Shown here piece after piece: positions 30,937-63,492 of a stretch of DNA of 64,000 nucleotides. How positions within the stretch are numbered: the stretch's first letter is position 1; the number at the start of each line of letters is the position of its first letter. A program made the position numbers and the translations under genes. The notes under the pieces were generated by a model. That model made no database searches. It saw only the letters and a list, made by a program, of their open reading frames with translations, and was not told where the DNA came from. The stretch covers positions 3,892 through 67,891 of the forward strand of contig CAYVUR010000001.1 of NCBI GenBank assembly GCA_964455185.1, read 5' to 3'. Source of the DNA: an uncultured Gammaproteobacteria bacterium (GTDB lineage: Bacteria > Patescibacteriota > Patescibacteriia > 2-01-FULL-39-33).

Positions 30937-32034
30937 TTATTTTTTAAGACTGAAATAATTTCCGCCTCCAGAATTTTTAATTAGTCCTTTTATTTCCAGT
31001 ACTGATAATATGCTTGAAAGGACATTGATTCTAATATTACAGATTTGGGCTATTTTGTCAATGTGAAGACTTTGATTTTTTAAAAGAAAAATAATATTTT
31101 TTTCTGTTTCAGTTAAATTTTGAGTATTATCGCTTGATTTTGCTTTAATTAAATGACCAAGTTTTAAATCTTCTAAAATATCTGATATTTGAGTTACAGC
31201 TTTAGCTCCTTTTTTAATTAATTCATTGGTTCCTTCACAATAATGATTATAAATATTGCCAGGCACAGCATAGACATCACGGCCTTGGTCAAGAGCGCAA
31301 TTAGCGGTTATTATAGTTCCTGATTCTTTTCCAGCTTCTATAATTAATACTGCTTTAGAAATTCCAGAAATAATACGGTTTCTTATGGCAAAATTACTTT
31401 TTAAAGTTATTGAACCTAGTGAGTTTTCTGAAATTAAACAGCCGCCTTTTTCTAAAATTTCTTGGGCTAATCGATGATTTGATTTAGGTCCAATATTTTT
31501 CCAGTTTAAATCTGAACCTAAAACAGCGGCAGTGAATCCGTTTTTAGTAATTGCTATTTTGTGAGCTAGGGCATCTATTCCAAAAGCCAAGCCAGAGATT
31601 ATACCAATATTATAATAACTCAATTGACTTACTAAATCTTCTACAACTCTTTGTCCATAAGAAGTATTTTTACGTGTACCAACTACCGCTAAACATGGTA
31701 AATAATTAATAGGTTTAATATCGCCTAAAAAATAAATAATAAAAGGCGGATCATAGATTTCTTTAAGTAATTTAGGATAATTATTATCTTCTATTGTCAC
31801 CCAATTTATTCCCAACTTTTGTAATAGTTCAATTTCTTGATTAAGATCTATTTGATTACGTTGTTTAATAATTTCCTGACAGTCATTTTCTTTGATTCCC
31901 GAAGCTAAAAGTTCTGGAAAATTAGCTTTCCAAGCTAGTTCTAAATCTCCGAAAAAATCTTTAATAAGTTTAAATTTTATTGGACCTATTTGAGGTATCT
32001 TTGAAAAACCTATAAAATATTGGTCTTTTTGCAT
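30937..32034 (-). CDS. dprA: DNA processing protein DprA
   Basis: Rossmann-like DprA core (..LAVVGTRKNTSYGQRV..IISGLAFGIDALAHKIA..) and a C-terminal winged helix. Confidence 0.85.
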   Translation of the reverse strand: MQKDQYFIGFSKIPQIGPIKFKLIKDFFGDLELAWKANFPELLASGIKENDCQEIIKQRNQIDLNQEIELLQKLGINWVTIEDNNYPKLLKEIYDPPFIIYFLGDIKPINYLPCLAVVGTRKNTSYGQRVVEDLVSQLSYYNIGIISGLAFGIDALAHKIAITKNGFTAAVLGSDLNWKNIGPKSNHRLAQEILEKGGCLISENSLGSITLKSNFAIRNRIISGISKAVLIIEAGKESGTIITANCALDQGRDVYAVPGNIYNHYCEGTNELIKKGAKAVTQISDILEDLKLGHLIKAKSSDNTQNLTETEKNIIFLLKNQSLHIDKIAQICNIRINVLSSILSVLEIKGLIKNSGGGNYFSLKK

Positions 32035-47300: not shown

Positions 47301-48194
47301 GCAACTAAACAACCTTTATTTTTTGAAACGCCGGTATTAAGTTATGGTAATCCATATCAAGCTAGAGCTGGTGGAAGCGTTATAGAAAATAGTAAAGCTA
47401 ATTTTTTTAATAATAGTTTTAAAAGGATAGCGGTATTTTTAAATACTACAACAACACTTCAACAACTTTTTGCTAAAAGTTATGGTATTTTTATTTGGCA
47501 TTGGGATGAAATTAATATTTTTAATCCGAATTTAATATTAAAAGAATGGTTATTTTTTACTAATTCAAATGACAATACTAATTGTGTTCAAGATAATGGA
47601 AATAAGATTTGTACTCCTGTAAATGGTGTAAATGGTTCAGGGGGAAGTTATAAAGAAGAATTAGCAAGCCTTGATAATTGGGATAATGTAAGTGCAAAAG
47701 GTTTAGGATCAATAATTGATAATATTAAACTTGAAATAATTAGTAAATATGAAACTATTTCTTTAGCTAAATTAAGCTTTAATGTTACAATACCAGTTGA
47801 TCAATTACCAATCAAATCTTATACCATTGCTTGGGGCGATGGAACAGTTGATACTTTTTCAGGTGCTTCTCTTAATGATAAGCCAAACTCGTCCAGTACT
47901 TTTACGGTTTATCATACTTATGATTTCAATAAACTTAAGGATATTTCTATTTCTGGCTCCAATTTTAATTTATCAATGCCCTGTTGTGTAAAGAGTGGAT
48001 CATATGAGTGTACTGAGCAGTTGTCTATTGTGCCAAATGCTCCTGTTTCATCTGCATGTACCAACGCTACCTGTACAGCTACCATCTATATTTCGGTTAG
48101 AGATAATTGGGATAAAGTTAATTATTGTAATATTACTACAACCACTCAAGGAATAAATTATAATTATGCAACTGTAAGTATAAGTTCAAATTAA
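38328..48194 (+). CDS. Giant (3288 aa) secreted Cys-rich multi-domain surface protein with CBM4/9-like jelly-roll modules and a C-terminal PKD-like domain
   Basis: Signal peptide MNNKLKIYFFVVVSLFMFLASTTRAEAQ. At least four galactose-binding-like modules (GGFEEQEG.., YDGGFEYGDFDWNSYWGG.., LQSSTTGSWVGADGTSNG.., GNFEVKLNSGKPLSWVNW..). At least 8 recurrences of a Cys hairpin C-x2-3-[SA]-x-G-C-x2-[FY]. A PKD-like IAWGDGTVDTF..VYHTY motif near the C-terminus. Confidence 0.7.
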   Translation: MNNKLKIYFFVVVSLFMFLASTTRAEAQVNEIYMEGNSVLWTGDNFSLNVTPCVGDQYIEGTAFTKNQADCIEKLIQNLDKNTQKTIQAYMKKRLREEWWDQMKTKLKEAMAGAFKKSLENIARQIGRDTAVWVASGGRGQKPLFITEGWGAYMKNIADVALGDFIDQIGQSFGVDLCEPDFNIKLAIILGIDDRQTRRVRCSFSKIIQNWESAISNFNFSVEYRAALRPGENDISVALILADKKHNYIAGIVEAAAKEAETQGLWANIKDIAGKILTPGSMIHDKFKSDIHDTSKLGWETFTDTIWDLIGSFLDTLVGQLALNLKNGFFSSSPVKSDDNSNLPDLSSLFNPWSSPVVAGIKGAEGKFNYLKTSTIKVGGQYDLLNKLTACQDPNNPGPMGCVLDVNLASAIRQKTLVKDLPEEILNRPFVPLANKVENPNEYFSLRGVTILRKYRIVPVGWEYAANLISQLAAKNPNFKAPTLKQIMNEFNNTNSDYFGLIDPFWVLKAPDMFCRREGYGPQNSFSGDQNGAIFRDNYCADEQQCIKENDDGSCAAYGYCTEERRVWNFGKSCEPRYNTCNTYVNRLGQTNYWLTNTLDFRDCDQSTVGCRWFSIEYNPVSKYWVGAYESNFYTVNNETTEQQITLSDDSGWLVRENQYVSNNKQLIMASPCTEVLCKDPAMNGKCNFVNRACKFNTGLSCSIPSGGINCRLPICDSQTDAFASGNGGFEEQEGIYTDNAKKWSDELSFITLNNRAYREINGGKSGAGLRVLANGSPSDILLLSDSFSVNPGSSYHLKFDLRGSVGNQGKVFVFVYGGDKRINSNNLSDIKILGSIEINAGYISNNWTSFRSSEFQVQEFSTATIAIMAPQGTFADIRFDNFSLNEVSSKCFENSVTVFSSIKQEDRENIKDIYFDRDAESCSPDSAGCSQFLRLKAGIGTNLVYDGGFEYGDFDWNSYWGGSKLSPIAEIKDGKAKLRYSTASYSTYKPINVEPNDYYTVSFDAAQTSDTNHHEIKFEMAFVSDINYAGKYHYEVKDTNCSQTGDNTITLIFTPESTNMKRQSCWFKVPSGAKILLFKPFASSETAEIYFDNLKIEKVNYPSLTPTAYTPYNLEDIQNQQVTYLRKAPDYFNCYYYTAEGVKRWPITPSELNSVLANRSLACSQFAGVCAPYEVGCELYKPLNGDPTVPGVANDIDVCPAECAGYQVYKQEVTRFVNDKYRQFITDNKIKYCSASYAGCDEFTNLDELGRGAEAKEYYSAIRACQKPDIDDGAFYTWEGSDVTGYQLKAYNLKKSTSTDPDPNGIGGIAPCTNLFYDNQGKPKCNDPSTWPTSSEELEKAGFCTVNDLVTNADCRQFYDVEGNVHYRLLSRTISVSNNCHPYRRTMTQNSTAETEEDCKSHSGWWNSNNECIYMAIPGEGMKCPASAKGCRAYTGNKGNNVRNIIEVANFGLQSSTTGSWVGADGTSNGLFVSSESTFPGGNSLMNRGTTVIKHPVKIKKGKTYILSFWAKGSDNFSMDSIKFTGAGTDTSKYFAVKQIRDDNLLSNRPNFKQDWNLYQLGPVFVDWEPSDNEYLEFNLPTGAGITAYNIYLDNVILKEIVNNVYAIENSWYTPVSCDNKLDDPDGSKSITTGSCQDSASGRCSIGEMLGCTGYTNRANQTVYLKSFASLCRSEAAGCEALIDTKNNNTSLAKSYHVGDNSQVNVSADEQVYLVNSPQFSCPASDKGCTPYGLPIIDQQDNVISYQSVFIKNQPDKYEIDLCYAKNLWCEEYSANGGAKYFKDPHNKICVYGSTRTSTSAIWYKIGTNGDPCDVTFNQTYGTGYGSLEKKLQPVGVVSGATYSSSGEPVYTGWAGACSQDQSGCTEFVDPLTEMYKEELGKLNSDNSVSYLLKANTLYSISNDSFYKININSDNCEFIPQDITYSRPGDTSSGYLYYAKPNSDDKYCNVTISSSDNKIKVAKAGVYYKIANSVDKSSCNGLVDFGTGCVLFNDRSGIDYSTTTMFGRNKYLNFDANYTYFIQGYPFSSQKVGPKTAQEALNSGSTQNSNNTDIILQVKPDRTCSNWLACTSYIKGDGNSSNEKFGEKDYCLSVNACDELSEDNQCSHLVSTNKEIIDLTSTTTRLSYLNKTGYSVPGLYPVDQMKYEGQGANVGNGNFEVKLNSGKPLSWVNWSQNIAWDPSMFSVVYDPKNAPEGSNYLRINFKSTAKSEIIDVISGQDYYLSAWINTESLKSSSSPLKERAEIVVMNAEKDEEINRVMVSAGLPWARVTRKFTANAKSIYLLLRNSPDGPPFSTSNTGQPVGYSLFDDIQITPVLNDNGDGLMLPKTCRIYPSADAPACKYSSGNTNYYGWYGYCLTPDPNRRSDCLQWFPVDKIKGEFSSDYALGYDNRAPLYYCIDWDIVSFNINDLGVIGNIGEDVKAKYRQKVSAIITDNRKVTPIAFNIDPEYAGMFRYPYIYRFIFVGAFGGLQRDNNFKLLPILTFMYPKCAVGFFGYLPIFHGSDCKDIFKSHSIFSSSTEEEIKNEVWIKDIFESCLAPEFKKGGNEGFWMDKMCGDGLENGEYWHGKQIGKSSNQTYKGTYKGSLYFSSSLPLSSPSSSSTDLIEFTSNNSKTEIADFDGSIDGYMDDYTYKNDGKRIDYYQCLNREKKVWDWDNNDCSVEVYDFCYYKNTFCELDNPNNYEGESSCREFCFGTLDSIDDEIESCIKEKVQQAKADRGDCNFAGLNISQWIRCVVNKLVNIISSIWLSVSNIAWNDTEDVWGGFGAFGFVIEGIDIKPLVFPTTFSGALNAPNIIFAIELVANAIKAIGGQATENIFIGVGASGVKIITDQDSKYASSLTDPDPNVSGNVLGYAWFLNTSELKGAGLVGHFEGYMNIPYCKKFVKVVTASGQNKAYYSKVGLGSNYSYTVNAQSFGPNPASTATFTYNMDYMPFGAIVPPSSGNIDEPITWDSKTLSSIDQGNINLPGVNVSGLQLIQPTVIGVNYSATKQPLFFETPVLSYGNPYQARAGGSVIENSKANFFNNSFKRIAVFLNTTTTLQQLFAKSYGIFIWHWDEINIFNPNLILKEWLFFTNSNDNTNCVQDNGNKICTPVNGVNGSGGSYKEELASLDNWDNVSAKGLGSIIDNIKLEIISKYETISLAKLSFNVTIPVDQLPIKSYTIAWGDGTVDTFSGASLNDKPNSSSTFTVYHTYDFNKLKDISISGSNFNLSMPCCVKSGSYECTEQLSIVPNAPVSSACTNATCTATIYISVRDNWDKVNYCNITTTTQGINYNYATVSISSN

Positions 48195-48216: not shown

Positions 48217-51200
48217 ATGTTTTCTAGAAGAAAGAACAAAATTTTGATAAATATTGTGGCTACAATAATAATAGTCGCAATGTGTTTTGGTGTAGCTAGG
48301 CCGGTTAGAGCTGGTTGGCTGAATAATTTAGGTGCTTTTGGTGGTTTTGTTGGAACAGTTGCTGCTGGAGCAGCTATTGGAAGCTTATTTGCTATTAGTG
48401 CGCCGGTTTCTGTTCCGGTGGCTTTAATTGGTGGAACGATTTTGACTGCTGTGACTGAAGCTGGCGTCATGTATGTCATAAGTAGTAGAAAAGTTCAAGA
48501 ATCTGCTAATTCAATAGTAACTCCTATAGTTATGAATGCTGCGTTAACTGATACCTCCATTGGAACTTATGTTGCTGGTACTAACTTGCCCGAAAGTACA
48601 GGGGGAGTTTTAGAAACGTCTGCAAAAGCAATTGAGAGAGGAGTTAAAAAAGAAGATGTACAAGCGGCTATAGGAGGCATGAATTACAGTTATCAGCAAA
48701 CCGAGGCACTAAAAGCATCTAACCAGCAAATAAAAGATGATCCCAAGAATTCAACCATAGGTGATATTATTGCTCGCATGTTTGCTTGGCTTTTGTATTA
48801 CATAGCCGTAGGATTGGGTTGGGTTTTAATGTTGATTAGTTTTGTAATGCTTAAAATTGCTGTTTATAATAATTTTCTTAGAGAAGACGCAATACATTTA
48901 GGTTGGCAAATTATCAGAGATATTTGTAATAATTTTTTTATCATTTTATTACTTATTACTGCAATTAGTACTATGTTGCGTCAAGGAGACTTTAAAGATT
49001 GGCGTAGTATGTTACCTAAAATTTTAGTTGCTGCAGTAATAATTAATTTTTCTTTATTAATGTGTGGTATTTTTATTGATGTTTCACAAATTTTTACTCT
49101 TACTTTTGCTAGCCCGCTTAATTCTATTACAGGATACAATGTTATTTTAGCGGCTATGGGTATACCAAGCAGTATGCAATTAAGCAATCTTTCTTCAGAA
49201 GTAGGTACCACTGGAATTGAAAATATAGATCTAATAGCGGCTTTAATTTATGCGACAATAATAACTTTTGTTACAATAATAGTTATTACAGCAATAACAG
49301 TATTACTAGCTTATCGTATTATTATGTTATGGTTTTTAGTAATACTTTCTCCTTTACCTATTCTTTTATCTCTCTTAAAGAGAGGAGCTAGTTATGTTAA
49401 TTTATGGTGGGAAGAATTTTTTAAATATCTAATAGTAGGACCTGCAGTGATGTTTTTCTTATATTTATCCTTTATGTTTATGGGTAAAATGAATAATACA
49501 GGAACAGCTGGAAATACTTCTAATGTTTTAAATATTAATACTCAAAGTCTACCAACAGGTGCAACTATAGGTAGCGGCTCTAATGTAACTTTAACTTCAG
49601 GTAAAGATACTGTTAGTTTGTCTAATGCCGCTAGCCCTAATGGAGTCATTAATTTTTTAATTGTTATTAGTTTAATGGCCGGGTCTTTATTAATGGCTCA
49701 AAAAATTGGAACAAAAGGTTCTAAATTTGCTGGACAAAGTTTAACTTGGCTACAAAATCAAGGTAAGCGTTGGAGTGGATTTAATTTAGCTAAAAATTTA
49801 GCAAAATCAGCACCTAGAACTGTTGGCACCGCCATTGATGATAAATTGGGCCTTCGTCAAAAATTGTATGGAACAGCTTTTGCTGCTGGTGGTAAATATA
49901 TTCCTTTTGTTGGACAGGATTTAGGTAAAAGAATTGGCGTATTGGAAGAAGGAACACAGAGAAGAATTAATGCAAAATATAGTGATTTAGCTAAAGGTTA
50001 TCAAATTGATAAAATGAATGAAGAACAATTAAGAAAATTAGCTTCTAAAGGTGGATCTGCTGGAGTGGTGGCTACTCAAGCTTTAATGAAGAAAGGTTTA
50101 TTTAGAGATGATGATGAATTAAATAGAGCAAATAATATTGATATTATTAAGAAAGCTAGAGAGGCACTTAAAGGAACTGATTTAGGTAATACTTTTGATG
50201 AAAATCTTAAAAAATATAATCCTAGTTTAGCTTTTTCTACTATTTATGATGGTAAATTAGATAAATTACGTAGCGATTTAAAACTTGGAAAAATTGATAT
50301 TGATAAGTTAATGGCTGGTATGACTCCCGAGCAGATCAATAAACTCAAAGCGGATTTGGGTGGTGGCAATGGCGCTGTAGCTAAGTTTATTTTGAGTAAT
50401 TCTAGTGATATTGGTAAAACCTTAAAAGGTATGAATAAACAAAGTCGAGAATTGGTCACTCAAGAAATTGATCATAAAACTTTTGCTAAGCGCATCAATC
50501 CTGATGGTACGATTGCTGAATATGATGATGAGACTAGAAGGAAATATTTATCTTCAAAACCTGCTGATATTATGAAGATTTTTGATATGAATGACAAAAC
50601 TGAATTAGAAAAGGCTAGAAAACAATTTAGTAAGAATAGAGAGACTATTTTGAGGGAAATGGATCCAGAAGGTATGACCTCTGAATTTATTAAGAATTTT
50701 GGAGATTTATTTAATTTTAAAGAATTAGAGAAAAATTTCTCTGATCGAAGTTCTGAACATAAAACTGCTGCGACTAGAGCTTTGCAAGAACATCTTGATG
50801 CTTCACTAAAAGAGGTGAACTTTGAACAATTGGCTCAAAATTTGGCTCGAGCTATAGCCAGTGGAGATAAAGTTGCTATAGAAAAAGCTAAGAAAGAGCA
50901 AGCAGATATGGATGAATTAGTTAAGAAAAATTTATTGGCCCAAGGAAATTTATCACCATCAGTTATTAAAGCTTCTGGCTCTGATGATGCTTTAGAGAGG
51001 ATTTTGGGTAATCTTAATGGCGATGATGCTAGTAAAATTAATTGGGGTAATTTATCTGATCAAGAGAAAAATATTATATCTCAACATATTAATCCTAATG
51101 CTCTTAAATTGTTAGCAACTAGAGGAGATAATAATGAGTTGATAAGGGGAGTTCGCGATAATATTAGAACTAGAGCGAAGATAGATAATGATAATGAACA

Positions 51201-52966: not shown

Positions 52967-53416
52967 ATGCAACAAGTAGTTGTACCACAATTTTTAGATG
53001 TAGAAGATAAAATTATTGGGCCAATTACAGTACGTCAATTTATTGAATTAGTAATTGGAGCTATTTTTATCGCTATACTTTATAAATTGCTTTATTTACC
53101 TTATTTTTTAGTTGCTGGTTTTATCGTTTTTGGTATTACCATGATTATAGCTTTTGCTAAAATAAATGGGCAGGTTTTTCATATTTTTATGCTTAATTTT
53201 TTTCAGACAATGATAAATCCTAAATTAAAAATTTGGCGAAAAAGAGTAACTCTTAAAGAAATAAAAGCCGATTTATCTAAACCTAAAGAAGAAAATTTAC
53301 AATTAGTAAAAATGTCTCATCGACCAATAAGTTCTTCGCGACTTTCAGAAATCGCCTTAATTATAGATACGGGAGGAGTTTATCAAGGAGAAGAAAATAA
53401 TAATTTAATAAAATAG
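52967..53416 (+). CDS. PrgI/VirB3-like small membrane protein
   Basis: PQFLDVEDKIIGPITVRQFIELVIGAIFIAILYKL then a second TM, the PrgI-family pattern. It is immediately upstream of VirB4. Confidence 0.5.
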   Translation: MQQVVVPQFLDVEDKIIGPITVRQFIELVIGAIFIAILYKLLYLPYFLVAGFIVFGITMIIAFAKINGQVFHIFMLNFFQTMINPKLKIWRKRVTLKEIKADLSKPKEENLQLVKMSHRPISSSRLSEIALIIDTGGVYQGEENNNLIK

Positions 53417-53419
53417 TTT

Positions 53420-54100
53420 ATGGCAGGAAGAAAAGCTAACAATTCAACACCATCAACCCAAAGTTTTCTTCAAATTTCTGAAATAAAAGATGATACAATA
53501 GTAATGAAGGATGGTAGTTTGCGGGCAGTCTTATTAGTTTCAAGTATTAATTTTGCGCTTAAATCGGAAGATGAACAAAATGCAATTATTGCTGGTTATG
53601 TCAGTTTTCTTAATTCTTTAGAATCACCTTTACAAATAGTTATTCAATCACGCAAATTAGATTTAGATCAATATTTAGAGTTTCTTAAAGAAATTGAAGA
53701 AAAACAACAAAACGATTTATTAAAAATACAAATGACTGAATATCGTCAATATATTCAAGAATTGATTGAATTAGGCAATATTATGACCAAAAGATTTTAT
53801 GTTATAGTTCCTTATTCAGTTTTTGGAGAAAAAAAAAGAAGTTTTTGGCAAAGATTAAGTGATATTCTTGCTCCTGCTTCGGTGATAAATTTGGATCAAG
53901 AACGTTTTTTACAAAGACAAAAAGATTTATTTGTTATAGTTGATAGAGTTATGACTGGTTTGGCTAGTATGGGTTTACGTTCACAAATTTTGGATACTCA
54001 ATCACTAATTGAATTATTTTATAATACTTATAATCCGACAGTTTCTAGATATGAGAAATTACAAGATATTAATAAATTAATGATGGAACAAAAAATGTAA
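53420..54100 (+). CDS. VirB4-like ATPase, N-terminal fragment (split or frameshifted)
   Basis: FLQISEIKDDTIVMKDGSLRAVLLVSSINFALKSEDEQNAIIAGYVSFLNSLESPLQIVIQS resembles N-termini of Gram-positive VirB4/TraE proteins. It stops at an A6 tract (54090-54095) 4 nt before the next ORF, in a different frame. Confidence 0.5.
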   Translation: MAGRKANNSTPSTQSFLQISEIKDDTIVMKDGSLRAVLLVSSINFALKSEDEQNAIIAGYVSFLNSLESPLQIVIQSRKLDLDQYLEFLKEIEEKQQNDLLKIQMTEYRQYIQELIELGNIMTKRFYVIVPYSVFGEKKRSFWQRLSDILAPASVINLDQERFLQRQKDLFVIVDRVMTGLASMGLRSQILDTQSLIELFYNTYNPTVSRYEKLQDINKLMMEQKM

Positions 54101-54104
54101 TTTT

Positions 54105-56027
54105 ATGTTTAATCCTCAAGAAATAGAAAAAAATAATCAGTCACAACAAACTTTTGGTTATACTCCTCCACCACCTCTTAAAGGTGCTCAGAGATTAGCT
54201 GTAGAAACTAAAGAACTTGCTTTATCCAAAGAAGCTTTGGAAGAAGAAAAAATTTATCGCCGAGGAGTAGTTTCGGTTAGAGATTTAATAGCTCCCTCAG
54301 CCTTAGAAGTTAATCCTAATTATATTAAGTTGGGGGAACTTTTTGTTCGTACTATTTTTGTTTATGAATATCCTAGATATATTGCCGTAGGTTGGTTTGC
54401 TCCCATAATTAATATGGATATTACCGCAGATATTGCTATGTTTTTTTATCCAGTTAAGGCCGCGGTGATACTTAAACAGCTTAAGAAAAAGGTAGGTGTT
54501 TTAGAAGCAGGAATTATTTCTGCCGCTGAAAAAGGTGCGCCACGTGATCCTTTAGCAGAAACAGCGCTTAGAGACATGGAAAAATTACGTGATGACTTAA
54601 CTCAAGGAATAGAACATTTTTTTCAGATTTCTCTTTATGTAACTATTTATGCTAAGACTCTTGAAGAATTAGATAGAACTTCTGAAAGAATAGAAAATTT
54701 TTTTGGTTCAACGCTTATTTATTCAAGACGTGTTTTTTATCAAGCGGAACAAGGATTTAATTCTACTTTACCGATTGCATTAGATGAAATGCAAGTTTTT
54801 ATTAATATGAATTCTTCTCCAGCGGCGTCAGCTTTTCCTTTTGTTTCATCAGATCTTACTTCTGATCATGGAATTCTTTATGGGATTAATCGTCATAATA
54901 ATAGTTTAATATTATTTGATAGATTTTCTTTACAAAATGCTAACGCAGTGGTTTTTGCTACTTCTGGAGCTGGTAAATCTTATGCAATAAAACTTGAAGT
55001 GTTACGTAGTTTAATGATGGGAACAGAAGTGATAATTATTGATCCAGAACGTGAATATAATCATCTTTGTCAAGCTGTAGGAGGTACTTATATTGATATT
55101 TCACTTAATTCAGAAGGTAAGATTAATCCTTTTGATTTACCGCGTGCTGTTGGTGAAGATGCTAAAGCCGGAGATATTATTAGAAACGCAGTCATTACGG
55201 TTAAAGGTTTAGTTAGATTAATGATTGGAAACGTTACTCCTGAAGAAGATTCAATTATTGATCGAGCGCTTTTAGAAACTTATGCTAAAAAAGATATAAC
55301 TCCTGATGCTGATTTACGTTACGTTGAACCGCCGATTATGCAAGATTTTCAAGATATACTAGAAGGCATGGAGGGCGGAGAAAATATTGTTTTACGTTTA
55401 AAAAAATATACCGAAGGGACTTTTGCTGGCTTACTTAATAATCCAACTAATGTTAAACTTGATAATCAATTAGTAGTATTTTCTGTTCGAGATTTAGAAG
55501 ATGAACTTAAACCGTTAGCTATTTATACTATCGTTAATTATATTTGGAATATAGTTAGAAGCGAACTTAAGAAAAGAATTTTAGTAGTTGATGAAGCTTG
55601 GTGGTTAATGCAACGAGAAGATTCAGCTAAATTTATTTTTGCTTTAGTTAAACGTTGCCGTAAATATTATTTAGGAGTTACCACAATTACCCAAGATGTT
55701 AATGATTTTCTTACTTCTTCTTATGGACAGGCGATAGTTAATAATTCTTCAATACAATTATTGTTAAAGCAGTCACCGGCTGCAATTGATTTAGTTAAAA
55801 AAACTTTTTTACTTACTGAAGGAGAAAAGTATTTATTATTAGAATGCGGTGTTGGTGAAGGAATTTTTTTTGCTGGAGCTAAACATGTAGCGATTAAAAT
55901 TGTTGCTTCTTATTCTGAAGATCAACTTATTACTTCTGATCCGCGCCAATTATTAGAAATAGAGCGAGCTAAAAAAGAATTTGCTGAAGCTATGATGCAA
56001 GAAGAAAATATGCCTAAAAAAGAATAA
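54105..56027 (+). CDS. VirB4/TrbE-family T4SS ATPase (middle and C-terminal ATPase domains)
   Basis: Walker A FATSGAGKSYAIKLE, Walker B ILVVDEAWWLM, and upstream VirB4-family blocks (YIKLGELFVRTIFVYEYPRYIAVGW). Confidence 0.8.
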   Translation: MFNPQEIEKNNQSQQTFGYTPPPPLKGAQRLAVETKELALSKEALEEEKIYRRGVVSVRDLIAPSALEVNPNYIKLGELFVRTIFVYEYPRYIAVGWFAPIINMDITADIAMFFYPVKAAVILKQLKKKVGVLEAGIISAAEKGAPRDPLAETALRDMEKLRDDLTQGIEHFFQISLYVTIYAKTLEELDRTSERIENFFGSTLIYSRRVFYQAEQGFNSTLPIALDEMQVFINMNSSPAASAFPFVSSDLTSDHGILYGINRHNNSLILFDRFSLQNANAVVFATSGAGKSYAIKLEVLRSLMMGTEVIIIDPEREYNHLCQAVGGTYIDISLNSEGKINPFDLPRAVGEDAKAGDIIRNAVITVKGLVRLMIGNVTPEEDSIIDRALLETYAKKDITPDADLRYVEPPIMQDFQDILEGMEGGENIVLRLKKYTEGTFAGLLNNPTNVKLDNQLVVFSVRDLEDELKPLAIYTIVNYIWNIVRSELKKRILVVDEAWWLMQREDSAKFIFALVKRCRKYYLGVTTITQDVNDFLTSSYGQAIVNNSSIQLLLKQSPAAIDLVKKTFLLTEGEKYLLLECGVGEGIFFAGAKHVAIKIVASYSEDQLITSDPRQLLEIERAKKEFAEAMMQEENMPKKE

Positions 56028-56040
56028 AATAAAATATTAT

Positions 56041-56625
56041 ATGTTTATGTTAGACAATAGACAAAAAATAATTATAAGTTTATTAATCAGCGTTGCTATA
56101 TTAATAGTAGCTTTTTTTCTGTGGTTATTATTTAAGCCTAAAGAAGCTCCAATAAATTTAGTACAAACTCCAACTTCAACCATTCAAATCGGACAATCAG
56201 TAGTTGAACCCGTTGTTTTAGAACCCGCTAATCCATCTAGAATAGAAAATGAAAAACAATATCCTTTAGGGTCTAAACAGGTTGCTATGATTTTCGCTGA
56301 AAGATATTCTAGTTATTCAACTGATGAACCAATCAAAAATATTCAAGATCTTCAATCTTTAACTACGTCAGAGTTTTATTCGGCGATTATTTCTGAAGCA
56401 AAAAATAGACAATTTCCTGATATTTTTTATGGTTATTCAGCTAAAGCTCTAGCAGCTAATCTTATAGAAGTTAGCCAAACAAAAGCCAAAATAGCAGTTA
56501 ATTTACAAATAGAACAAACTATAGGTGATGGACAAAATAGTAATATTTTATATCGCACTTTAAATGTTAATTTAATTAAATTGAGAGAAGAATGGAAAGT
56601 AAATGGAGCCTCTTGGCAACAATAA
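56041..56625 (+). CDS. Bitopic membrane protein (N-terminal TM + ~150-aa extracytoplasmic domain); possibly VirB8-like
   Basis: TM IIISLLISVAILIVAFFLWLLF. The size and topology fit VirB8-type T4SS subunits, but no motif-level support. Confidence 0.3.
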   Translation: MFMLDNRQKIIISLLISVAILIVAFFLWLLFKPKEAPINLVQTPTSTIQIGQSVVEPVVLEPANPSRIENEKQYPLGSKQVAMIFAERYSSYSTDEPIKNIQDLQSLTTSEFYSAIISEAKNRQFPDIFYGYSAKALAANLIEVSQTKAKIAVNLQIEQTIGDGQNSNILYRTLNVNLIKLREEWKVNGASWQQ

Positions 56626-57251
56626 GTAATTATTTAATTGATTTAATTTTTCCTAAAATTTGTGTTTCCTGTGGCCAGCCAAATGAAAATTTGTGTAATT
56701 ATTGTAAACAATCAGTTAACCCTGTTTTTGGGACTAAATCGGTTCCTAATATTGACCAATTAATTTTTATTTGGCGTTACGATAACCAAGTAGTAAAATC
56801 ATTAATTAAATCTTTGAAATACGATTTTATTACTAGTCTTGAAAATGATTTACGATTTCTTTTTAATCAGCAAAATTATATTGAAAAAATTAGAGATTTT
56901 TGTTCTTCTGGATATTTAATACCAATTCCTTTACATAAAAAACGTGAACTTTGGCGAGGTTTTAATCAGTCAGTAATAATAGCTCAAATTATTTCAGAAA
57001 TAACTTGTTTACCAGTAAAAGATAATTTAATTAAAAGAATAATATTTACTAAACAGCAAGCTCATTTAGAACTGAATGATAGATTATTAAATTTAAAAAA
57101 TGTTTTTTTAGCAACTAAATGCTCAACTATTGATAAGACAGCGATATTAATTGATGATGTTGTAACTACGGGAGCAACTTTATCAGCTGCCGCTCAAGAA
57201 CTTAAAAGAAAAGGATTTTTATATGTTAAAGCTTTAGTTCTCGCTGCTTAA
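56592..57251 (+). CDS. comFC: Competence protein ComFC (phosphoribosyltransferase-domain, ComF family)
   Basis: N-terminal 4-Cys zinc finger (CVSCGQPNENLCNYCKQ) and the PRTase PRPP-binding motif ILIDDVVTTGATL. Confidence 0.85.
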   Translation: MESKWSLLATISNYLIDLIFPKICVSCGQPNENLCNYCKQSVNPVFGTKSVPNIDQLIFIWRYDNQVVKSLIKSLKYDFITSLENDLRFLFNQQNYIEKIRDFCSSGYLIPIPLHKKRELWRGFNQSVIIAQIISEITCLPVKDNLIKRIIFTKQQAHLELNDRLLNLKNVFLATKCSTIDKTAILIDDVVTTGATLSAAAQELKRKGFLYVKALVLAA

Positions 57252-57438: not shown

Positions 57439-57525
57439 AGGAGAGGTGGCAGAGTGGTTGAATGCGTCAGTCTTGAAAACTGAAGTCCCCTTAAAAGGAC
57501 CGCGAGTTCGAATCTCGCCCTCTCC
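57439..57525 (+). tRNA. tRNA-Ser (TGA), class II long variable arm
   Basis: GGAGAGG-TG-GCA..TCAGT-CTTGAAA-ACTGA-[variable arm]-GCGAG-TTCGAAT-CTCGC-CCTCTCC-G. Confidence 0.85.
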
Positions 57526-57556
57526 GCAAGAATTTTTTCAAAAATATAATAATTAT

Positions 57557-58054
57557 ATGTCAGAAAAAACAAACAACCCGGCTTTAACTGAAGCTTTATT
57601 TTATTGGCAACATCCGGATTATGTGGTTTATCACAAAAGTTTTAAATGGTATGCAATTTCTTTGATATTATTAGTTTTTGCTGTTATATGGACGATTATA
57701 GATGCCAATTATATGTTTGGTGTTTTCTTGGTTTTATTTTATTTAATACTTTTATTATTTGAAAATCGTCCTCCGGAAATGGTAGAATTTGCCATTACTC
57801 CAGAAGGAATTAAAAGTGGTAAAAAATTTCATTATTATCGTGATATTGATTGTTTTTATATTATTTATCGTGCCGAAGGAATAAAAAATCTTTATTTTGA
57901 GTTTCGTAACCCTTTAAAAGGAAGATTAGTTATTCCTCTTGATGGTCAAAATGCTGTTGCTATTAGAGATTATTTGATTAGTGTTTTGCGTGAAGATTTA
58001 GAAAGAGAAGCAGAACCATTAACTGAGCAATTACGCCGTTGGTTAAAAATATAA
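57557..58054 (+). CDS. Hypothetical small membrane protein (two TM helices)
   Basis: The track ORF 57446-58054 overlaps tRNA-Ser(TGA). The first Met after the tRNA (MSEKTNNPALTEALFYWQHPDY...) is the likely start. It has two adjacent hydrophobic helices. Confidence 0.4.
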   Translation: MSEKTNNPALTEALFYWQHPDYVVYHKSFKWYAISLILLVFAVIWTIIDANYMFGVFLVLFYLILLLFENRPPEMVEFAITPEGIKSGKKFHYYRDIDCFYIIYRAEGIKNLYFEFRNPLKGRLVIPLDGQNAVAIRDYLISVLREDLEREAEPLTEQLRRWLKI

Positions 58055-58155: not shown

Positions 58156-60213
58156 ATGGCTGCTTTATCGGATAAAATCGGAGAATTAAATCCGTTTGCC
58201 AAGAAATTATCAAAAAAATTACAACGTTTAGGAATTGAGACCATAGAAGATCTCATTTTTTATTATCCTTATCGTTATGAAAATTTTTCAGTGTTATCTG
58301 AAATTTCAAAATTAACAATAGGACAAGAAGCTGTTGTTTGGGGAAGATTAGAACTTATTGCTTCACGACGTAGTTTACGTCAACGTAAATATCTTACAGA
58401 AGCAGTAATTTCTGACACTTCTGGGTCAATAAAAATAATTTGGTTTAATCAACCTTGGCTAACTAAAACACTCAAACCCGGAGATCGTTTATTGGTTTAT
58501 GGAAAGATAGCGGGAGATGTTTTTAATATTTATTTTAATTCTCCTAATTGGCAAAAAGTTGATTTTAATAAAAAACCAGAACCCCTAGGAATTTTACCAG
58601 TTTATCCATTAACCGCCGGCATAACTTCTAAACAGATTTTTTCTTTAGTAGAAACAGCTTTAATAAAGTATAAAGAGTTTATTAAAGATTTTTTACCACA
58701 AAAGATAATTGAAGACTATAAACTTAAAGAATTGTTTTGGTCTATTAAACAAATACATAAACCTACTAATTTAGATAATTTATCTTTAGCGCAATATCGA
58801 CTTTCTTTTGATGAACTTTTATTTTTACAATTAAAATCACAATTATCACGACGAAAATTAAAAGCATTAAAAGCACCACAAATTAATTTTAATGAAGCAA
58901 AAACTAAAGAATTAGTTAATTCTTTGCCTTTTAATTTAACTGCTGATCAAAAAAAGTCAGCTTGGGAAATAATTAAAGATATTGGTAAAACTGAACCGAT
59001 GAACCGATTACTTGAAGGAGATGTTGGTTCTGGTAAAACTTTAGTTGCTATAATATCTATGCATGCTACTTTTGTTGCTGGTTGGCAAACTGCTTTAATG
59101 ACTCCCACAGAAATATTAGCAACCCAACATTATCAAACAATTAGAAAGGTTTTAAAATTTTCTGGCGCCAAAATTGGTTTATTAACTGCTAACAGAAAAA
59201 TTATTAATGATGTTAAGGTAAATAAAAAAGATTTTTTGCAAGCTTGTTTATTAGGTGAAATAGATATAATAATAGGAACTCATTCTTTAATACAATCAGA
59301 AATTAATTTCAAAAAATTAGCTTTAGTTATTGTTGATGAACAACATCGTTTTGGCGTTAGACAAAGACAAGAATTAAAAAATAAAGGAGAATTAACCCCT
59401 CATTTTCTATCTTTAACTGCTACGCCTATACCTCGAACTATGGCATTAATTGCTTATGGAGATTTAGATATTTCTTTAATTAAACAACCACCTCAAGGTA
59501 GATTACCAATTATTACTAAAGTTGTTTCGCCGCAACAAAGAAATATGGCTTACGATTTTATTAATAAACAGGTAGCTCGGGGTAGACAAGTTTTTGTTAT
59601 TTGTCCTTTGATTGATCCCTCTGATAAATTAGGAGTTAAATCAGTAAAAGAAGAATATATGAAGTTAGATAAAGAAGTATTTCCTCATTTTTCAGTGGGC
59701 TTGTTACATGGCCGTTTGAAGCCTTCAGAAAAGGAACAAATAATGAATGATTTTACTGCTGGAAAAATTAAAATTTTAGTAGCAACTTCCGTAATTGAGG
59801 TTGGTGTAGACGTTCCTAATGCTACTGTTATGATGATTGAAGGAGCAGAGCGATTTGGTTTAGCTCAACTACATCAATTTCGTGGACGTGTAGGAAGAGG
59901 AAAATTTCAATCTTATTGTTTTTTATTTACCAATTCTTCAGATGAAAAAACAATTAAACGTCTTAATTTTATTGCTCATAATAATGATGGTTTTTCTTTA
60001 GCAGAATATGATTTAAAATTAAGAGGCTCAGGAAATTTATATGGCGTAGAACAATCAGGATTTATTTCCGGACTAAAATTAGCTGATATTAATAATGTAG
60101 CATTAATAAAACAAGTTTCAAACGTTGCTAAAGAGTTGATTGATAAAATAAACAATTTTCCTGAATTATTAGATAAAATAGAAAAATTAGGATTAATTGA
60201 TCATTGGGAGTAA
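58156..60213 (+). CDS. recG: ATP-dependent DNA helicase RecG
   Basis: Wedge/OB N-terminal domain and helicase motifs (GDVGSGKT, DEQHRFGV, TATPIPRTMA, LHGRLK). Confidence 0.93.
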   Translation: MAALSDKIGELNPFAKKLSKKLQRLGIETIEDLIFYYPYRYENFSVLSEISKLTIGQEAVVWGRLELIASRRSLRQRKYLTEAVISDTSGSIKIIWFNQPWLTKTLKPGDRLLVYGKIAGDVFNIYFNSPNWQKVDFNKKPEPLGILPVYPLTAGITSKQIFSLVETALIKYKEFIKDFLPQKIIEDYKLKELFWSIKQIHKPTNLDNLSLAQYRLSFDELLFLQLKSQLSRRKLKALKAPQINFNEAKTKELVNSLPFNLTADQKKSAWEIIKDIGKTEPMNRLLEGDVGSGKTLVAIISMHATFVAGWQTALMTPTEILATQHYQTIRKVLKFSGAKIGLLTANRKIINDVKVNKKDFLQACLLGEIDIIIGTHSLIQSEINFKKLALVIVDEQHRFGVRQRQELKNKGELTPHFLSLTATPIPRTMALIAYGDLDISLIKQPPQGRLPIITKVVSPQQRNMAYDFINKQVARGRQVFVICPLIDPSDKLGVKSVKEEYMKLDKEVFPHFSVGLLHGRLKPSEKEQIMNDFTAGKIKILVATSVIEVGVDVPNATVMMIEGAERFGLAQLHQFRGRVGRGKFQSYCFLFTNSSDEKTIKRLNFIAHNNDGFSLAEYDLKLRGSGNLYGVEQSGFISGLKLADINNVALIKQVSNVAKELIDKINNFPELLDKIEKLGLIDHWE

Positions 60214-60223
60214 AAATATACAA

Positions 60224-61561
60224 TTATTTTAAGATATTAATTGCTTTTTTAATATTATTTAAATTTTCAATTTTTATTTTAGATTTTGAAAAAAAGTTTT
60301 TTAATTGAGGTATTAAAGCGGAAACAAAACCCATTTTTTCTGCCTCAATTATTCTTTTTTCTAGTTGTGATACTGATCTAATTTCTCCTGATAAACCTAC
60401 TTCTCCTAAGATTATAGTTTTAGCAGGTAGAGTTTTTTCTAAAAAAGCAGAAACGATAGCTAAACAAACAGCTAAATCAGCAGCAGTTTCTTTAATTTTG
60501 AAACCGCCAGCAACATTGATATAAACATCGTAATTATTAAGATTTATTTTAGAATTTTTTGATAAAACAGCTAAAAGCATTTGTAAACGATTAAGATCAA
60601 ATCCATTAGCTCGGCGTTGCGGATAGCCAAAAAAAGTTTTAGCTGTTAACGCTTGAATTTCTATAAGAAATGGTCTGCTTCCTTCTATAACTATAGTAGT
60701 GGCTATTCCGCATCTATTAATATCTAATTCTTTATCTATAAAAGCTTGGCTAGGATTATTAATTTCTAATAGTCCTGTTGTAGACATTTCAAAAACGCCA
60801 ATTTCGCCAGTTGATCCAAAACGATTTTTTACTGATCTAAGTATACGATAAAAATTATTATTATCATTTTCTAAATAGAGTACAACGTCAACTAAATGTT
60901 CTAAAGTTTTAGGTCCAGCCACATACCCATCTTTAGTAACATGTCCAATAACTAAAATTGGTATGTTTTGAGTTTTAGCTAAGCTTATTAATTTAGTTGT
61001 ACAAGCAGTTATTTGTGATACACTCCCAACTGAACCAGAAACTTCTTGGGAGTAGATTGTTTGTATTGAATCTATAATTAAAAATTGAGGTTTAATTTTA
61101 TTAGTTGTAGCTATTATTTTATCAATATCAGTTTGTGCTAAAAAATTTATTTTTTTAGTATCAATTCCTAATCTAATTACTCGAGAAGCAACTTGTGAAG
61201 CAGACTCTTCTCCTGAAACATAAAGAGCATTGTTTAAGTTTTGAATTATTTGTAGAGCTAAAGTAGATTTACCAATTCCCGGATCTCCGCCAAGTAAAAT
61301 AAAAGATCCTAAAACTATACCCCCACCAAGAACTCGGTCAACTTCTTTTATTTTAGTGGTTAAGCGAAAATTTTCTGTTTCAGTTAAAGAAGCTAAATTA
61401 ATTGGAGTTTCTGGTGAGATTAAATTTTTAGTTTTAGGTTTTGTAGAAATAATTTCTTCATTAAGAGTTCCCCAAGAACCACATTCTAAACAGCGTCCTT
61501 GCCATTTAAGATATTGAGCGCCACATTTAGAGCAGAAAAAAATAGTTTGATTATTTTTCAT
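60224..61561 (-). CDS. radA: DNA repair protein RadA/Sms
   Basis: N-terminal C4 zinc finger (CSKCGAQYLKWQGRCLECGSWGT), RecA-like Walker A GDPGIGKST, a KNRFG motif and a Lon-like C-terminal domain. Confidence 0.93.
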   Translation of the reverse strand: MKNNQTIFFCSKCGAQYLKWQGRCLECGSWGTLNEEIISTKPKTKNLISPETPINLASLTETENFRLTTKIKEVDRVLGGGIVLGSFILLGGDPGIGKSTLALQIIQNLNNALYVSGEESASQVASRVIRLGIDTKKINFLAQTDIDKIIATTNKIKPQFLIIDSIQTIYSQEVSGSVGSVSQITACTTKLISLAKTQNIPILVIGHVTKDGYVAGPKTLEHLVDVVLYLENDNNNFYRILRSVKNRFGSTGEIGVFEMSTTGLLEINNPSQAFIDKELDINRCGIATTIVIEGSRPFLIEIQALTAKTFFGYPQRRANGFDLNRLQMLLAVLSKNSKINLNNYDVYINVAGGFKIKETAADLAVCLAIVSAFLEKTLPAKTIILGEVGLSGEIRSVSQLEKRIIEAEKMGFVSALIPQLKNFFSKSKIKIENLNNIKKAINILK

Positions 61562-61568
61562 GAAATTA

Positions 61569-62423
61569 TTATCCTTGATCTATGTGCCAACAATTATTTT
61601 CCGGTTTATATTCATTAATAATTCTTATTGTTGGATAAATAGTTCCTCCTATATTAACATTATTTAAAATATATCCCGGTTGCCCTTTATATTGAAAGTC
61701 TGGAGTTTCATTGGCGATAAGATTTCCAAAATATTGATTTGTTTGCTCATTTCTAGGAAAGTCAGCCGCTGTTCCATGAGCATGTCTTGAGCCAGTATCA
61801 TAAGGTCTAAAAACTGAAGTTGGATTAGCTCCAGTAGCCGAGCTTATAGTTTTAATTATTGCTTGAGTTTCTGGCGTAGCTCCAGTTAAATTTAATGGGA
61901 CATTGCTATTAATATTTCCTTCATGTTCGTATTTACCAATACTTTCTTCATGTTTTTGACTCATCACATCATAATTACTCGTGACTTGAATATCTTTTAT
62001 CTCTGGCATATTAATATTAGTCAAAGAAGGATTAATTAAACTAATAATTAAATAAGAACCAAAAGCTAATACTAACCCAGTAACAGCAGAAAAAATAGTA
62101 TCTTGAGCATCACTAATTTGTTTAGGGTCACCTCTAGAAGCCAACCATTTAAAGCCGCCCCACATTATTATAATAGTAGCAATAATGCCAACTGTTCCCA
62201 GTAAAAGATTGTACCAAGCTTTAAAATAATCTCCTAATAATGAACCCTTAACTTGTCCACCAGTAACATTGCCAACAGGAACATTGAGTTGAATTGAAAT
62301 ATCGTTATAATTGTTGTCAGTTTGGCTCTTTGATGAAGCTTTTGCTGGTGGATCTAATGCTAAAACTGTTGTAGCAGGAATTAATAAATAAAAAATAAAT
62401 ATTGTTAAAATTATTTTTTTCAT
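61569..62423 (-). CDS. Pilin-like (VirB2/TrbC-topology) membrane module fused to an M15-family zinc peptidase (VanY/DD- or LD-peptidase-like)
   Basis: Signal peptide plus two TM helices separated by a short basic loop (..YFKAWYNLLLGTVGIIATIIIMWGGFKWLASRGDPKQISDAQDTIFSAVTGLVLAFGSYLIISLI..). The C-terminal SRHAHGTAADF (SxHxxGxAxD) and terminal CWHIDQG are M15 zinc-site signatures. Confidence 0.6.
   Translation of the reverse strand: MKKIILTIFIFYLLIPATTVLALDPPAKASSKSQTDNNYNDISIQLNVPVGNVTGGQVKGSLLGDYFKAWYNLLLGTVGIIATIIIMWGGFKWLASRGDPKQISDAQDTIFSAVTGLVLAFGSYLIISLINPSLTNINMPEIKDIQVTSNYDVMSQKHEESIGKYEHEGNINSNVPLNLTGATPETQAIIKTISSATGANPTSVFRPYDTGSRHAHGTAADFPRNEQTNQYFGNLIANETPDFQYKGQPGYILNNVNIGGTIYPTIRIINEYKPENNCWHIDQG
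61958..62322 (-). repeat. Copy A of a ~365-nt perfect direct repeat (the shared N-terminal module of the two paralogs)
   Basis: Nucleotide-identical by eye to 63050-63412, from ..GACTCATCACATCATAATTACTCGTGACTTG.. through ..GAATTGAAATATCGTTATAATTGTTGTCAG. The flanks diverge. Confidence 0.8.
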
Positions 62424-62426
62424 ATT

Positions 62427-63482
62427 TTATTGACAATTAACCCCAGCTTGTTCTATTAATTTATCATTTCCCTCAGCTTCACTAGCCGCCATAATATCAG
62501 CATTCATTTGGGGTCTACCTGTTTTTTGTAACTGAATATAATATTGGCTGTTTAATATTTCTTTTCCAGCTTGTTCAAAATTATTTTCTCTAATAGCTGT
62601 CCACATATTATTGAAATTATTAAGTGAGGCTCCTCCCATATTATAAGCCATATCAGTTAGAACAACTTGTCTTCCAGCTGAAAGATTATCAAAATTGACT
62701 CCATGTTCGCTAGCTATTTCTCTAGCTTGATTTTGATATTTTTCGTAATCACTTGCTAGAATTTTTCTTGCTTCCTCTTCTGTGCCATTAAAAGTTTCTC
62801 CTGGCTGTATTTGATGTCCAAAATAAATATCTTGAGTGTCTGTTTGGATTGGGTCAGTATAAGGAGTAGTGCTATAACCTTCATGAGAAGCAATATAGGC
62901 CATGCCATAATTTCTCTCTCCTTTATCATTTTGTGGACAAGGTACTTTAGGTCCATTATTTTTATTTTCTGGCGTGGATTGTCCTAATTGACCATTAGTT
63001 GGAGTTGTTTGGGATAAAGAATTGTAATTATTACCTTTACTATAACCTTGACTCATCACATCATAATTACTCGTGACTTGAATATCTTTTATCTCTGGCA
63101 TATTAATATTAGTCAAAGAAGGATTAATTAAACTAATAATTAAATAAGAACCAAAAGCTAATACTAACCCAGTAACAGCAGAAAAAATAGTATCTTGAGC
63201 ATCACTAATTTGTTTAGGGTCACCTCTAGAAGCCAACCATTTAAAGCCGCCCCACATTATTATAATAGTAGCAATAATGCCAACTGTTCCCAGTAAAAGA
63301 TTGTACCAAGCTTTAAAATAATCTCCTAATAATGAACCCTTAACTTGTCCACCAGTAACATTGCCAACAGGAACATTGAGTTGAATTGAAATATCGTTAT
63401 AATTGTTGTCAGCAGCTAACACTCTTAATAGTGGTGGAATTAATAATAACAAAGTAATTAATACAAAAAATATTTTTTTCAT
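62427..63482 (-). CDS. Pilin-like (VirB2/TrbC-topology) membrane module fused to a GH24 phage-type lysozyme (muramidase)
   Basis: The N-terminal ~125 aa are identical to the 61569-62423 paralog. The C-terminal domain aligns with T4/P22 lysozymes: catalytic IASHEGYSTTPYTDP..IYFGHQ (E...D...T block), VVLTDMAYNMGGASL and NNFEQAGKEILNSQYY blocks. Confidence 0.65.
   Translation of the reverse strand: MKKIFFVLITLLLLIPPLLRVLAADNNYNDISIQLNVPVGNVTGGQVKGSLLGDYFKAWYNLLLGTVGIIATIIIMWGGFKWLASRGDPKQISDAQDTIFSAVTGLVLAFGSYLIISLINPSLTNINMPEIKDIQVTSNYDVMSQGYSKGNNYNSLSQTTPTNGQLGQSTPENKNNGPKVPCPQNDKGERNYGMAYIASHEGYSTTPYTDPIQTDTQDIYFGHQIQPGETFNGTEEEARKILASDYEKYQNQAREIASEHGVNFDNLSAGRQVVLTDMAYNMGGASLNNFNNMWTAIRENNFEQAGKEILNSQYYIQLQKTGRPQMNADIMAASEAEGNDKLIEQAGVNCQ
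63050..63412 (-). repeat. Copy B of the ~365-nt perfect direct repeat
   Basis: See copy A. It is identical across the signal-peptide-proximal to linker-coding region. Confidence 0.8.
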
Positions 63483-63492
63483 AGATAGTTTA

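Follow-up and report, generated by a model that had tools for sequence, protein, structure and literature searches.

How do two adjacent genes come to share 365 nucleotides without a single difference, while the remainder of each encodes an unrelated enzyme? This question is raised by a pair of genes, here termed A and B, in a 64 kb stretch of DNA of 29.8% G+C (the window, to whose positions all coordinates below refer: positions 3,892 to 67,891 of contig CAYVUR010000001.1, assembly GCA_964455185.1), which is filed under an uncultured gammaproteobacterium and placed by GTDB in the Patescibacteriota. The predicted products of both genes combine a pilin module, resembling the VirB2 pilins of type IV secretion systems (T4SSs), with different cell-wall enzymes. 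The repeat coincides with this module: it is very probably a recent tract of interlocus gene conversion between two old tandem paralogs. Such conversion is recurrent across this ABY1 lineage, and the window is the extreme case of it.

The repeat and the two genes that share it

When the window was shifted by 1092 nucleotides against itself, 61956-62320 and 63048-63412 agreed in an unbroken run of 365/365 positions with zero mismatches; the original prediction, which had recognized this perfect direct repeat by eye at 61958-63412, was right to within 2 bases. A repeat finder lists the same pair as 300 nucleotides at 100%, its reference copy being limited to 300 nucleotides. It is the only exact repeat of at least 25 nucleotides in the window. 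Directly outside the block self-identity falls to background on both sides, and this, together with the base composition, excludes a chance origin. A mobile element or an intein as the source of the repeat was likewise rejected, since rpoB/C, topA and ftsK mark the window as chromosomal.

Both copies lie on the minus strand. In gene orientation the repeat covers nucleotides 71-435 of gene A and 104-468 of gene B, and it is read in the same frame in both: from position 2 of codon 24 to Gln145 in A and from position 2 of codon 35 to Gln156 in B, so that 121 residues are identical. These are exactly the pilin module, Asp25-Gln145 in A and Asp36-Gln156 in B. The C-terminal halves of A and B showed no detectable similarity when the two genes were aligned; hence the flanks and C-terminal domains are unrelated, as had been claimed, save that the first 47 nucleotides, encoding the signal peptides, are 79% alike (63436-63483 against 62377-62424). 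This likeness may be the trace of an older and longer conversion or of a replacement of the 5' end, or may just reflect the AT-rich composition of leaders. The leader of gene A (63436-63483) has no detectable similarity to that of the orthologous gene A in a related genome, L010.

Gene A (62427-63482, minus strand) encodes 351 residues: a signal peptide, the pilin module, a low-complexity linker of ~45 residues and a T4-lysozyme-like domain of the GH24 family. The latter is matched by PF00959 (Phage_lysozyme; E 3e-07) over residues 199-310, that is 62553-62888, and by T4 lysozyme, gp5 and endolysin entries of the PDB (E 9e-05 to 5e-03). The pair thus has a glycan-cleaving domain, of the GH24 and not of the SLT type. 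Gene B (61569-62423, minus strand) encodes 284 residues: a signal peptide, a 13-residue insert absent from A, the pilin module, a linker and a LAS/M15-like metallopeptidase domain. The hydrophobic N-terminal leaders of both proteins end in VLA. The C-terminal domain of B (61572-61955) is probably a LAS-type (M15) zinc peptidase: the columns of the motifs His214-x2-Gly-x-Ala-x-Asp221 and His280-x-Asp282 are invariant in two alignments of the family, PF08291 (Peptidase_M15_3) matches 2/7 family members (best E 6e-09), and the family profile matches PDB entry 9flh (E 8e-06) across the metal-binding motif SGYRP..H..G.A.DF. The C-terminal domain of the window protein itself had no Pfam match, and a literature search for 9flh gave no relevant paper. 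An AlphaFold2 model of B, built from a 6-sequence alignment, reached a predicted local distance difference test (pLDDT) score of 55.7, and a Foldseek search of the PDB with it found no match with E below 0.38. This structure prediction is too poor to confirm the peptidase assignment, which is therefore drawn from motifs and profiles.

Gene conversion between two old paralogs

We compared the window with related loci and contigs, designated L001-L017, among them the 440 kb JGI contig Ga0212093_1000064 of dataset 3300022554 (L012/L016). The closest relatives of the locus are Buchananbacteria-like metagenome-assembled genomes (MAGs). The gene order ClpB, two open reading frames (ORFs), A, B, RadA, RecG is conserved in L010, L012/L016, L014 and L015 and partially in L001, L011 and L013; more distant Buchananbacteria-like genomes (L002-L008) also have tandem module-bearing genes. 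In all, a comparison of arrangements, which the original prediction had called for, recovered the tandem pair intact in 12 genomes. Two of the MAG records with this Patescibacteria-type locus of tandem pilin-hydrolase genes (L004 and L007) are titled ‘uncultured Gammaproteobacteria’, and their contigs are probably mis-binned or mislabelled.

Orthologous DNA of the window and L010 is 76-82% identical (RadA 77.5%, the C-terminus of A 76.3%, that of B 79.7%). Since orthologous pairs are present in relatives that differ by ~22% in their DNA, the A/B pair is old and not a new duplication. A very recent tandem duplication of the module or of a whole gene in this genome, with the second enzyme domain acquired afterwards, had been put forward as one source of the identity at synonymous sites, and a new duplicate would indeed show such identity. 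However, genomes ~22% diverged and more distant Buchananbacteria-like ones have the two genes in the same order, complete with a module and an enzyme domain apiece, which places the duplication before these lineages separated, and the gene A modules of relatives keep A-specific states that the window has lost. We consider a recent duplication extremely improbable. As both genes already had the module, the identity is to be sought in one copy overwriting the other.

The relatives show that this has happened repeatedly. Over 188-368 nucleotides, the A and B modules of the same genome are 84-100% identical in the 12 genomes, and in 10 of 11 genomes, compared over an ungapped core of 246 nucleotides, the identity within the genome exceeds every identity between genomes. 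The sole exception is L010 (A and B modules 83.7% identical), owing to the presence of the near-identical strain L001 in the set. Conserved degenerate residues are encoded by identical codons at 94/94 positions in the window; in the other genomes the fraction is 0.46-0.88. Individual tracts can also be discerned: the A module of L001 is a mosaic with an A-type 5' end, a stretch from about nucleotide 97 to at least nucleotide 251 that is identical to the B modules of L001 and L010, and then A-type sequence again. The A module of L010 lacks this B-type tract, though the B modules of the two strains are 100% identical. Conversely, variable sites aligned within the close clade reveal an A-type middle in the B module of L011, and L015 has a 270-nucleotide perfect tract within a 362-nucleotide block of 95% identity. 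Of the two explanations that the original prediction had offered for the identity, ongoing gene conversion is hence borne out by concerted evolution and mosaic tracts across the clade, in pairs whose orthologs are ~22% diverged; very recent duplication is contradicted by the presence of the pair, in the same order, in those genomes.

At the sites that distinguish A from B in relatives, the two copies of the window have B-type residues (DISIQ and GGQ), A-specific states having been lost, and the module is 81.8% identical to that of L010 B and 77.0% to that of L010 A. These two observations make the copy in gene B (61956-62320) the probable donor and that in gene A (63048-63412) the probable recipient. 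The tract spans the whole alignable region: its 5' limit is the 13-codon insertion in B and its 3' limit the divergence of the linkers. We envisage that homologous recombination copied the B module over the A module along the block that could still be aligned, and would thereby have erased every difference between them, synonymous sites included. Recurring events of this kind would make the modules evolve together, whereas the enzyme domains drift apart or give way to others.

Much of this is familiar from the concerted evolution of tandem paralogs, such as the duplicated tuf genes of enterobacteria: paralogs within a genome are closer than orthologs, with identity at synonymous sites, close strains have mosaic tracts with differing ends, and tracts stop where homology stops. 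The repeat in itself is a textbook outcome of gene conversion between tandem paralogs. The difference lies in the unit: here homogenization affects only one domain, and what is converted is a protein module and not a whole gene, the other two thirds of A and of B encoding unrelated enzymes. Concerted evolution and gene conversion are the subject of a prokaryote-wide survey (PMC6053082).

The same repeats might instead serve as handles for programmed domain swapping, with the enzymes as exchangeable ‘warheads’ of polymorphic effectors aimed at the walls of hosts or competitors; a likeness to polymorphic toxins and pilin cassettes had been suggested from the outset, as had deletion or swapping of the enzyme domains by recombination between the copies. 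Rhs/CdiA with their orphan modules and the pilE/pilS genes of Neisseria are well-known systems of these two kinds. Like them, the window combines an N-terminal part for trafficking that is conserved with C-terminal parts that differ between some genomes, and its repeats could support recombination. Direct repeats of 365 nucleotides are good RecA substrates, and the sequence shows that recombination deleting the DNA between them would preserve the reading frame, linking the leader of A and the module to the peptidase with loss of the lysozyme domain. Moreover, the C-terminal domains at this locus vary among genomes, including lysozyme, SLT, two kinds of LAS peptidases and unknown domains. A weapon would also fit the biology of Patescibacteria, which are epibionts that need their T4SS to grow on the host (PMC10633639; Wang et al., 2023). 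Against this, and unlike the known systems, the window has no cassettes that are silent or orphaned for want of a start codon or an export signal, it has no immunity-like genes, and it gives no evidence of switching. A and B are two full genes of the expressed type, each complete with its own ATG, signal peptide and entire module, and closely packed, with 3 nucleotides between A and B and 7 between B and the following radA; the pair is stably inherited in the 12 genomes. Conversion makes the handle uniform but has not moved the warheads between close strains: the window, L010, L011 and L001 all have a lysozyme and the same type of peptidase. A different peptidase-like C-terminus is found on B in L015 and L013, and SLT or unknown domains occur in more distant genomes. 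No recombinant protein was seen among the homologues. A pattern for the deletion product (the A leader, 365 undefined nucleotides and either 3' flank) matched the window and found nothing in metagenome contigs, a collection without this organism, in which the plain 32-nucleotide B junction also found nothing. We regard a programmed exchange as highly improbable, nothing at the locus indicating a switch. What stands of the proposal is that a deletion or swap is mechanistically possible, in frame, and that enzyme domains differ between genomes over evolutionary time, a replacement which the module may ease; the likeness to toxin or pilin cassettes, and alternative warheads in any other sense, are not supported.

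Assembly across the repeat

In a short-read de Bruijn graph a repeat longer than k becomes one node, and bubbles can be merged. It has therefore to be asked whether the modules have truly diverged, say to the ~84% seen in L010, or whether only one gene exists, the assembler having collapsed or mis-joined the repeat, which at 365 nucleotides exceeds typical reads and k-mers. Several contigs end inside the second pilin module: L001 (8064), L007 (9243), L013 (6298) and L017 (17992). Short-read assemblies of this clade thus seem to be broken regularly by the repeat, which makes it a practical hazard. The break in L017 (an independent MEGAHIT contig, k141_42567, ENA ERZ27245800) falls at window position 62096, exactly 141 nucleotides into the repeat. 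Such an end, exactly k = 141 nucleotides inside, is the signature of a genuine two-copy node of the graph.

The JGI contig Ga0212093_1000064 reproduces the 365-nucleotide repeat, and the protein of gene B is identical to P0001 encoded on it. Between 50.6 and 64 kb the window and this contig have only three differences, two of which represent one G/A change that recurs in each copy: at 63224 in copy 1 (minus strand), where the window has Gly87 (GGT) and JGI Ser (AGT), and at the equivalent site of copy 2, 62132 (minus strand; Gly98 in the window), with the same difference from JGI. The site falls at a nearly invariant Gly. Possibly conversion carried a mutation from one copy into the other; alternatively, a polymorphic or copy-specific site may have been called alike in both, as reads inside the repeat cannot be assigned to one copy.

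These data tell in part against the picture drawn above. The 365/365 identity is read from assembled contigs only, a same change in both copies is what a consensus call on unphaseable reads yields, and the figure of 100% may be partly imposed by the assembler. Nevertheless, the tandem arrangement is real: relatives with clearly different modules, which pose no assembly problem, have the same A-B order beside the same neighbours. Modules of ~84% identity would not share k-mers and would be assembled separately, there being no mechanism that makes them identical; the repeat is present in the JGI assembly; and the MEGAHIT contig stops just where a true two-copy node would make it stop. At most a few real differences could have been smoothed away, and we judge an artefact to be very unlikely. 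The warning of the original prediction that the repeat endangers assembly was nonetheless well placed, given the break in L017 and the single-nucleotide polymorphism shared by both copies between assemblies.

Pilin-borne wall enzymes beside a secretion system

What, then, is the module that is being homogenized? It is recognized by PF18895 (T4SS_pilin) with 31.3 bits in B and 30.5 in A, against a cut-off of 26.6. As in VirB2/TrbC-type pilins, a signal peptide is followed by two hydrophobic helices with a short polar loop between them: the AlphaFold model of B has helices at 60-96 and 100-130 (at a low pLDDT of 55-67), and a hydropathy scan gives two hydrophobic peaks. The proteins depart from a stand-alone pilin subunit (~70-120 residues) in carrying 140-205 further residues with the enzyme domains. 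A local hidden Markov model of the module, run on all six frames, found only the two copies in the window.

Searched against 1.84 billion cluster representatives, the 121-residue module gave 23,267 matches at E <=1e-3; nearly all of the best 150 are proteins of 250-420 residues with the module at the N-terminus. In the 110 nearest single-module representatives every C-terminal domain recognized by Pfam acts on the cell wall: GH24 (12), SLT (9, and SLT_2 in 2), M15 types (5), YkuD (3) and glucosaminidase (2), with VanY and a C39-like peptidase also among the domains found with the module. Because all recognized C-terminal domains are wall-acting, the pilin module is a common carrier for wall enzymes. 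Some database proteins (P0042, P0034, P0051 and P0089) have 6-11 module copies in one polypeptide, e.g. 11 matched stretches in 1147 residues; these may represent arrays of pilins joined in one chain, or else gene calls that were merged.

The surroundings are those of chromosomal Patescibacteria DNA, the window also encoding relA, dprA, der, femAB and ksgA. A T4SS core lies on the plus strand at 52967-56027: a PrgI/VirB3-like gene (52967-53416; PF12666), a TraC-like 226-residue ORF (53420-54100) and a VirB4 ATPase gene (54105-56027; PF19044, E 5e-30). Upstream of it are, in order, genes for a 3288-residue surface protein, an 1106-residue protein and a 472-residue protein. Between the end of virB4 at 56027 and that of gene B at 61569 are a 194-residue ORF, a comF-like gene (56592-57251, plus strand), a 202-residue ORF, recG (58156-60213, plus strand), three tRNA genes and radA (60224-61561, minus strand). 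The A/B pair hence adjoins the T4SS cluster, with VirB4/PrgI ~6 kb away, and this order is kept in relatives. A scan for promoters and terminators gave nothing above chance, and found no minus-strand terminator between A, B and radA.

A few further features of this region deserve mention. The 226-residue ORF, 4 nucleotides upstream of the VirB4-like ATPase, has weak similarity to the N-terminal part of TraC/VirB4 (PF11130, PF26593); the two may be a split VirB4, and the separate arrangement is also found in L016 and L017. The 202-residue ORF starts with GTG and overlaps a tRNA-Ser gene (57446-58054 and 57440-57527, respectively); its true start is probably further downstream, as the JGI gene call has 165 residues. 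Relative to L016 and L017, which are from the same population, differences cluster at 46000-48000 (~60) and 48500-50500 (~70), in the 3288-residue giant protein, which contains a carbohydrate-binding module, and the 1106-residue protein beside the T4SS genes; the next 13 kb has only three. Both have the look of hypervariable surface proteins. The T4SS genes are flanked by genes for natural transformation and recombination, namely dprA (30937-32034), comF (56592-57251) and recG/radA (58156-61561), surroundings that resemble those expected for a ComB-like role of this T4SS in DNA uptake. ABY1-class T4SS loci are known to contain comF, recG and radA (PMC12102498; Quinonero-Coronel et al., 2025).

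In the arrangement that we propose, A and B would both be exported, each presenting behind its cleavable signal peptide a VirB2-like two-helix module, a flexible linker and then the enzyme. The shared module would place both enzymes at one spot: the membrane beside the VirB4/PrgI T4SS, or its pilus-like assembly. VirB2-type pilins have both termini facing outward, so that a C-terminal enzyme would sit in the wall compartment. There the glycan-cutting GH24 muramidase of A and the peptide-cutting M15/LAS-type peptidase of B would jointly open the cell wall. By analogy, we slightly favour the view that A, acting on glycan strands, and B, acting on peptide stems, open the wall locally, as a two-domain VirB1-like hydrolase normally does for the T4SSs of monoderms (PMC12102498). 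Conversion, domain identities and synteny are shown by the data; docking at the T4SS and the wall acted on, whether the cell's own or that of a host, are inferred.

On the functional side, too, some observations pull the other way. The match to PF04956 (TrbC/VirB2) stays below its cut-off (24.9 and 21.9 bits against 27.9), as does that to NF045849 of NCBIfam, for Mollicutes pilin-like proteins (~22 against 40), and a profile of 12 modules run against PDB sequences found no solved VirB2/TraA, returning chance transmembrane matches only (E >=0.3). The function of B is deduced from its sequence, given its poor model and the Foldseek result. A and B lie on the strand opposite to virB4, in an operon-like run with radA, and their link to the T4SS is accordingly based on proximity and on the pilin domain.

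A stronger version of this proposal is conceivable. Identity of the modules might be more than a neutral by-product of conversion: it might keep them interchangeable, if both enzymes have to be built into a single VirB2-like T4SS filament or channel, on which the muramidase and the peptidase, tethered by long linkers, would drill through peptidoglycan. The wall might then be the host's, and a role in the uptake of DNA or nutrients could follow from the operon-like link to radA, recG, comF and dprA. We think this unlikely as it stands. If it were true, many ‘VirB2 pilins’ of Patescibacteria would be pilin-tethered wall hydrolases and would stand in for VirB1, which is reported to be absent from most Patescibacteria that have VirB2-like genes (PMC12102498).

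How does the proposed pair compare with wall hydrolases of known secretion systems? CwlT of ICEBs1 is a VirB1-like cell-wall hydrolase of a Gram-positive conjugation system. PrgK of pCF10 and TraG of pIP501 are VirB1-like two-domain hydrolases of such systems (PMC12102498). The window pair has in common with these a membrane-anchored muramidase and peptidase that are encoded with a VirB4-type machine in a single-membrane bacterium and would cut both glycan and peptide. However, PrgK, TraG and CwlT have both domains in one polypeptide, an SLT or related glycosidase with a CHAP/NlpC-P60 peptidase, and a plain transmembrane or lipoprotein anchor. The window has two proteins, GH24 and LAS/M15, with a pilin-like hairpin as the anchor; no CHAP/NlpC-P60 peptidase shares a polypeptide with the lysozyme, the LAS/M15-like peptidase being on the neighbouring protein B.

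The second comparison is with the VirB2-like arrays described in Patescibacteria (PMC10633639; PMC12102498). These were detected with the same family, PF18895, and likewise comprise tandem genes near virB4, and comF, recG and radA give the window the chromosomal setting of the ABY1 type. The published arrays consist of sequence-divergent pilins, with a mean amino-acid identity of 25% and a maximum of 54% (PMC12102498). By contrast, the window has two identical modules, each forming the N-terminal third of a cell-wall hydrolase; identity computed over whole proteins would hide that of the modules. The searchable literature yielded no account of fusions between pilins and hydrolases, nor of concerted evolution in them; such accounts may nevertheless exist. 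We rate as new, in place of the repeat, the gene pair as a variant of both the T4SS wall hydrolases and the Patescibacteria pilin arrays.

For the biology of ABY1 bacteria, this means that VirB2-like ‘pilin’ domains beside the T4SS can be N-terminal modules of peptidoglycan hydrolases, the modules evolving in concert as the enzymes diversify. Published surveys count such genes as pilins, their arrays as highly divergent and VirB1 as mostly missing. Analysis at the level of domains instead suggests where the wall-cutting activity may reside, and offers a testable handle on how an essential and poorly understood secretion machine of epibionts crosses cell walls.

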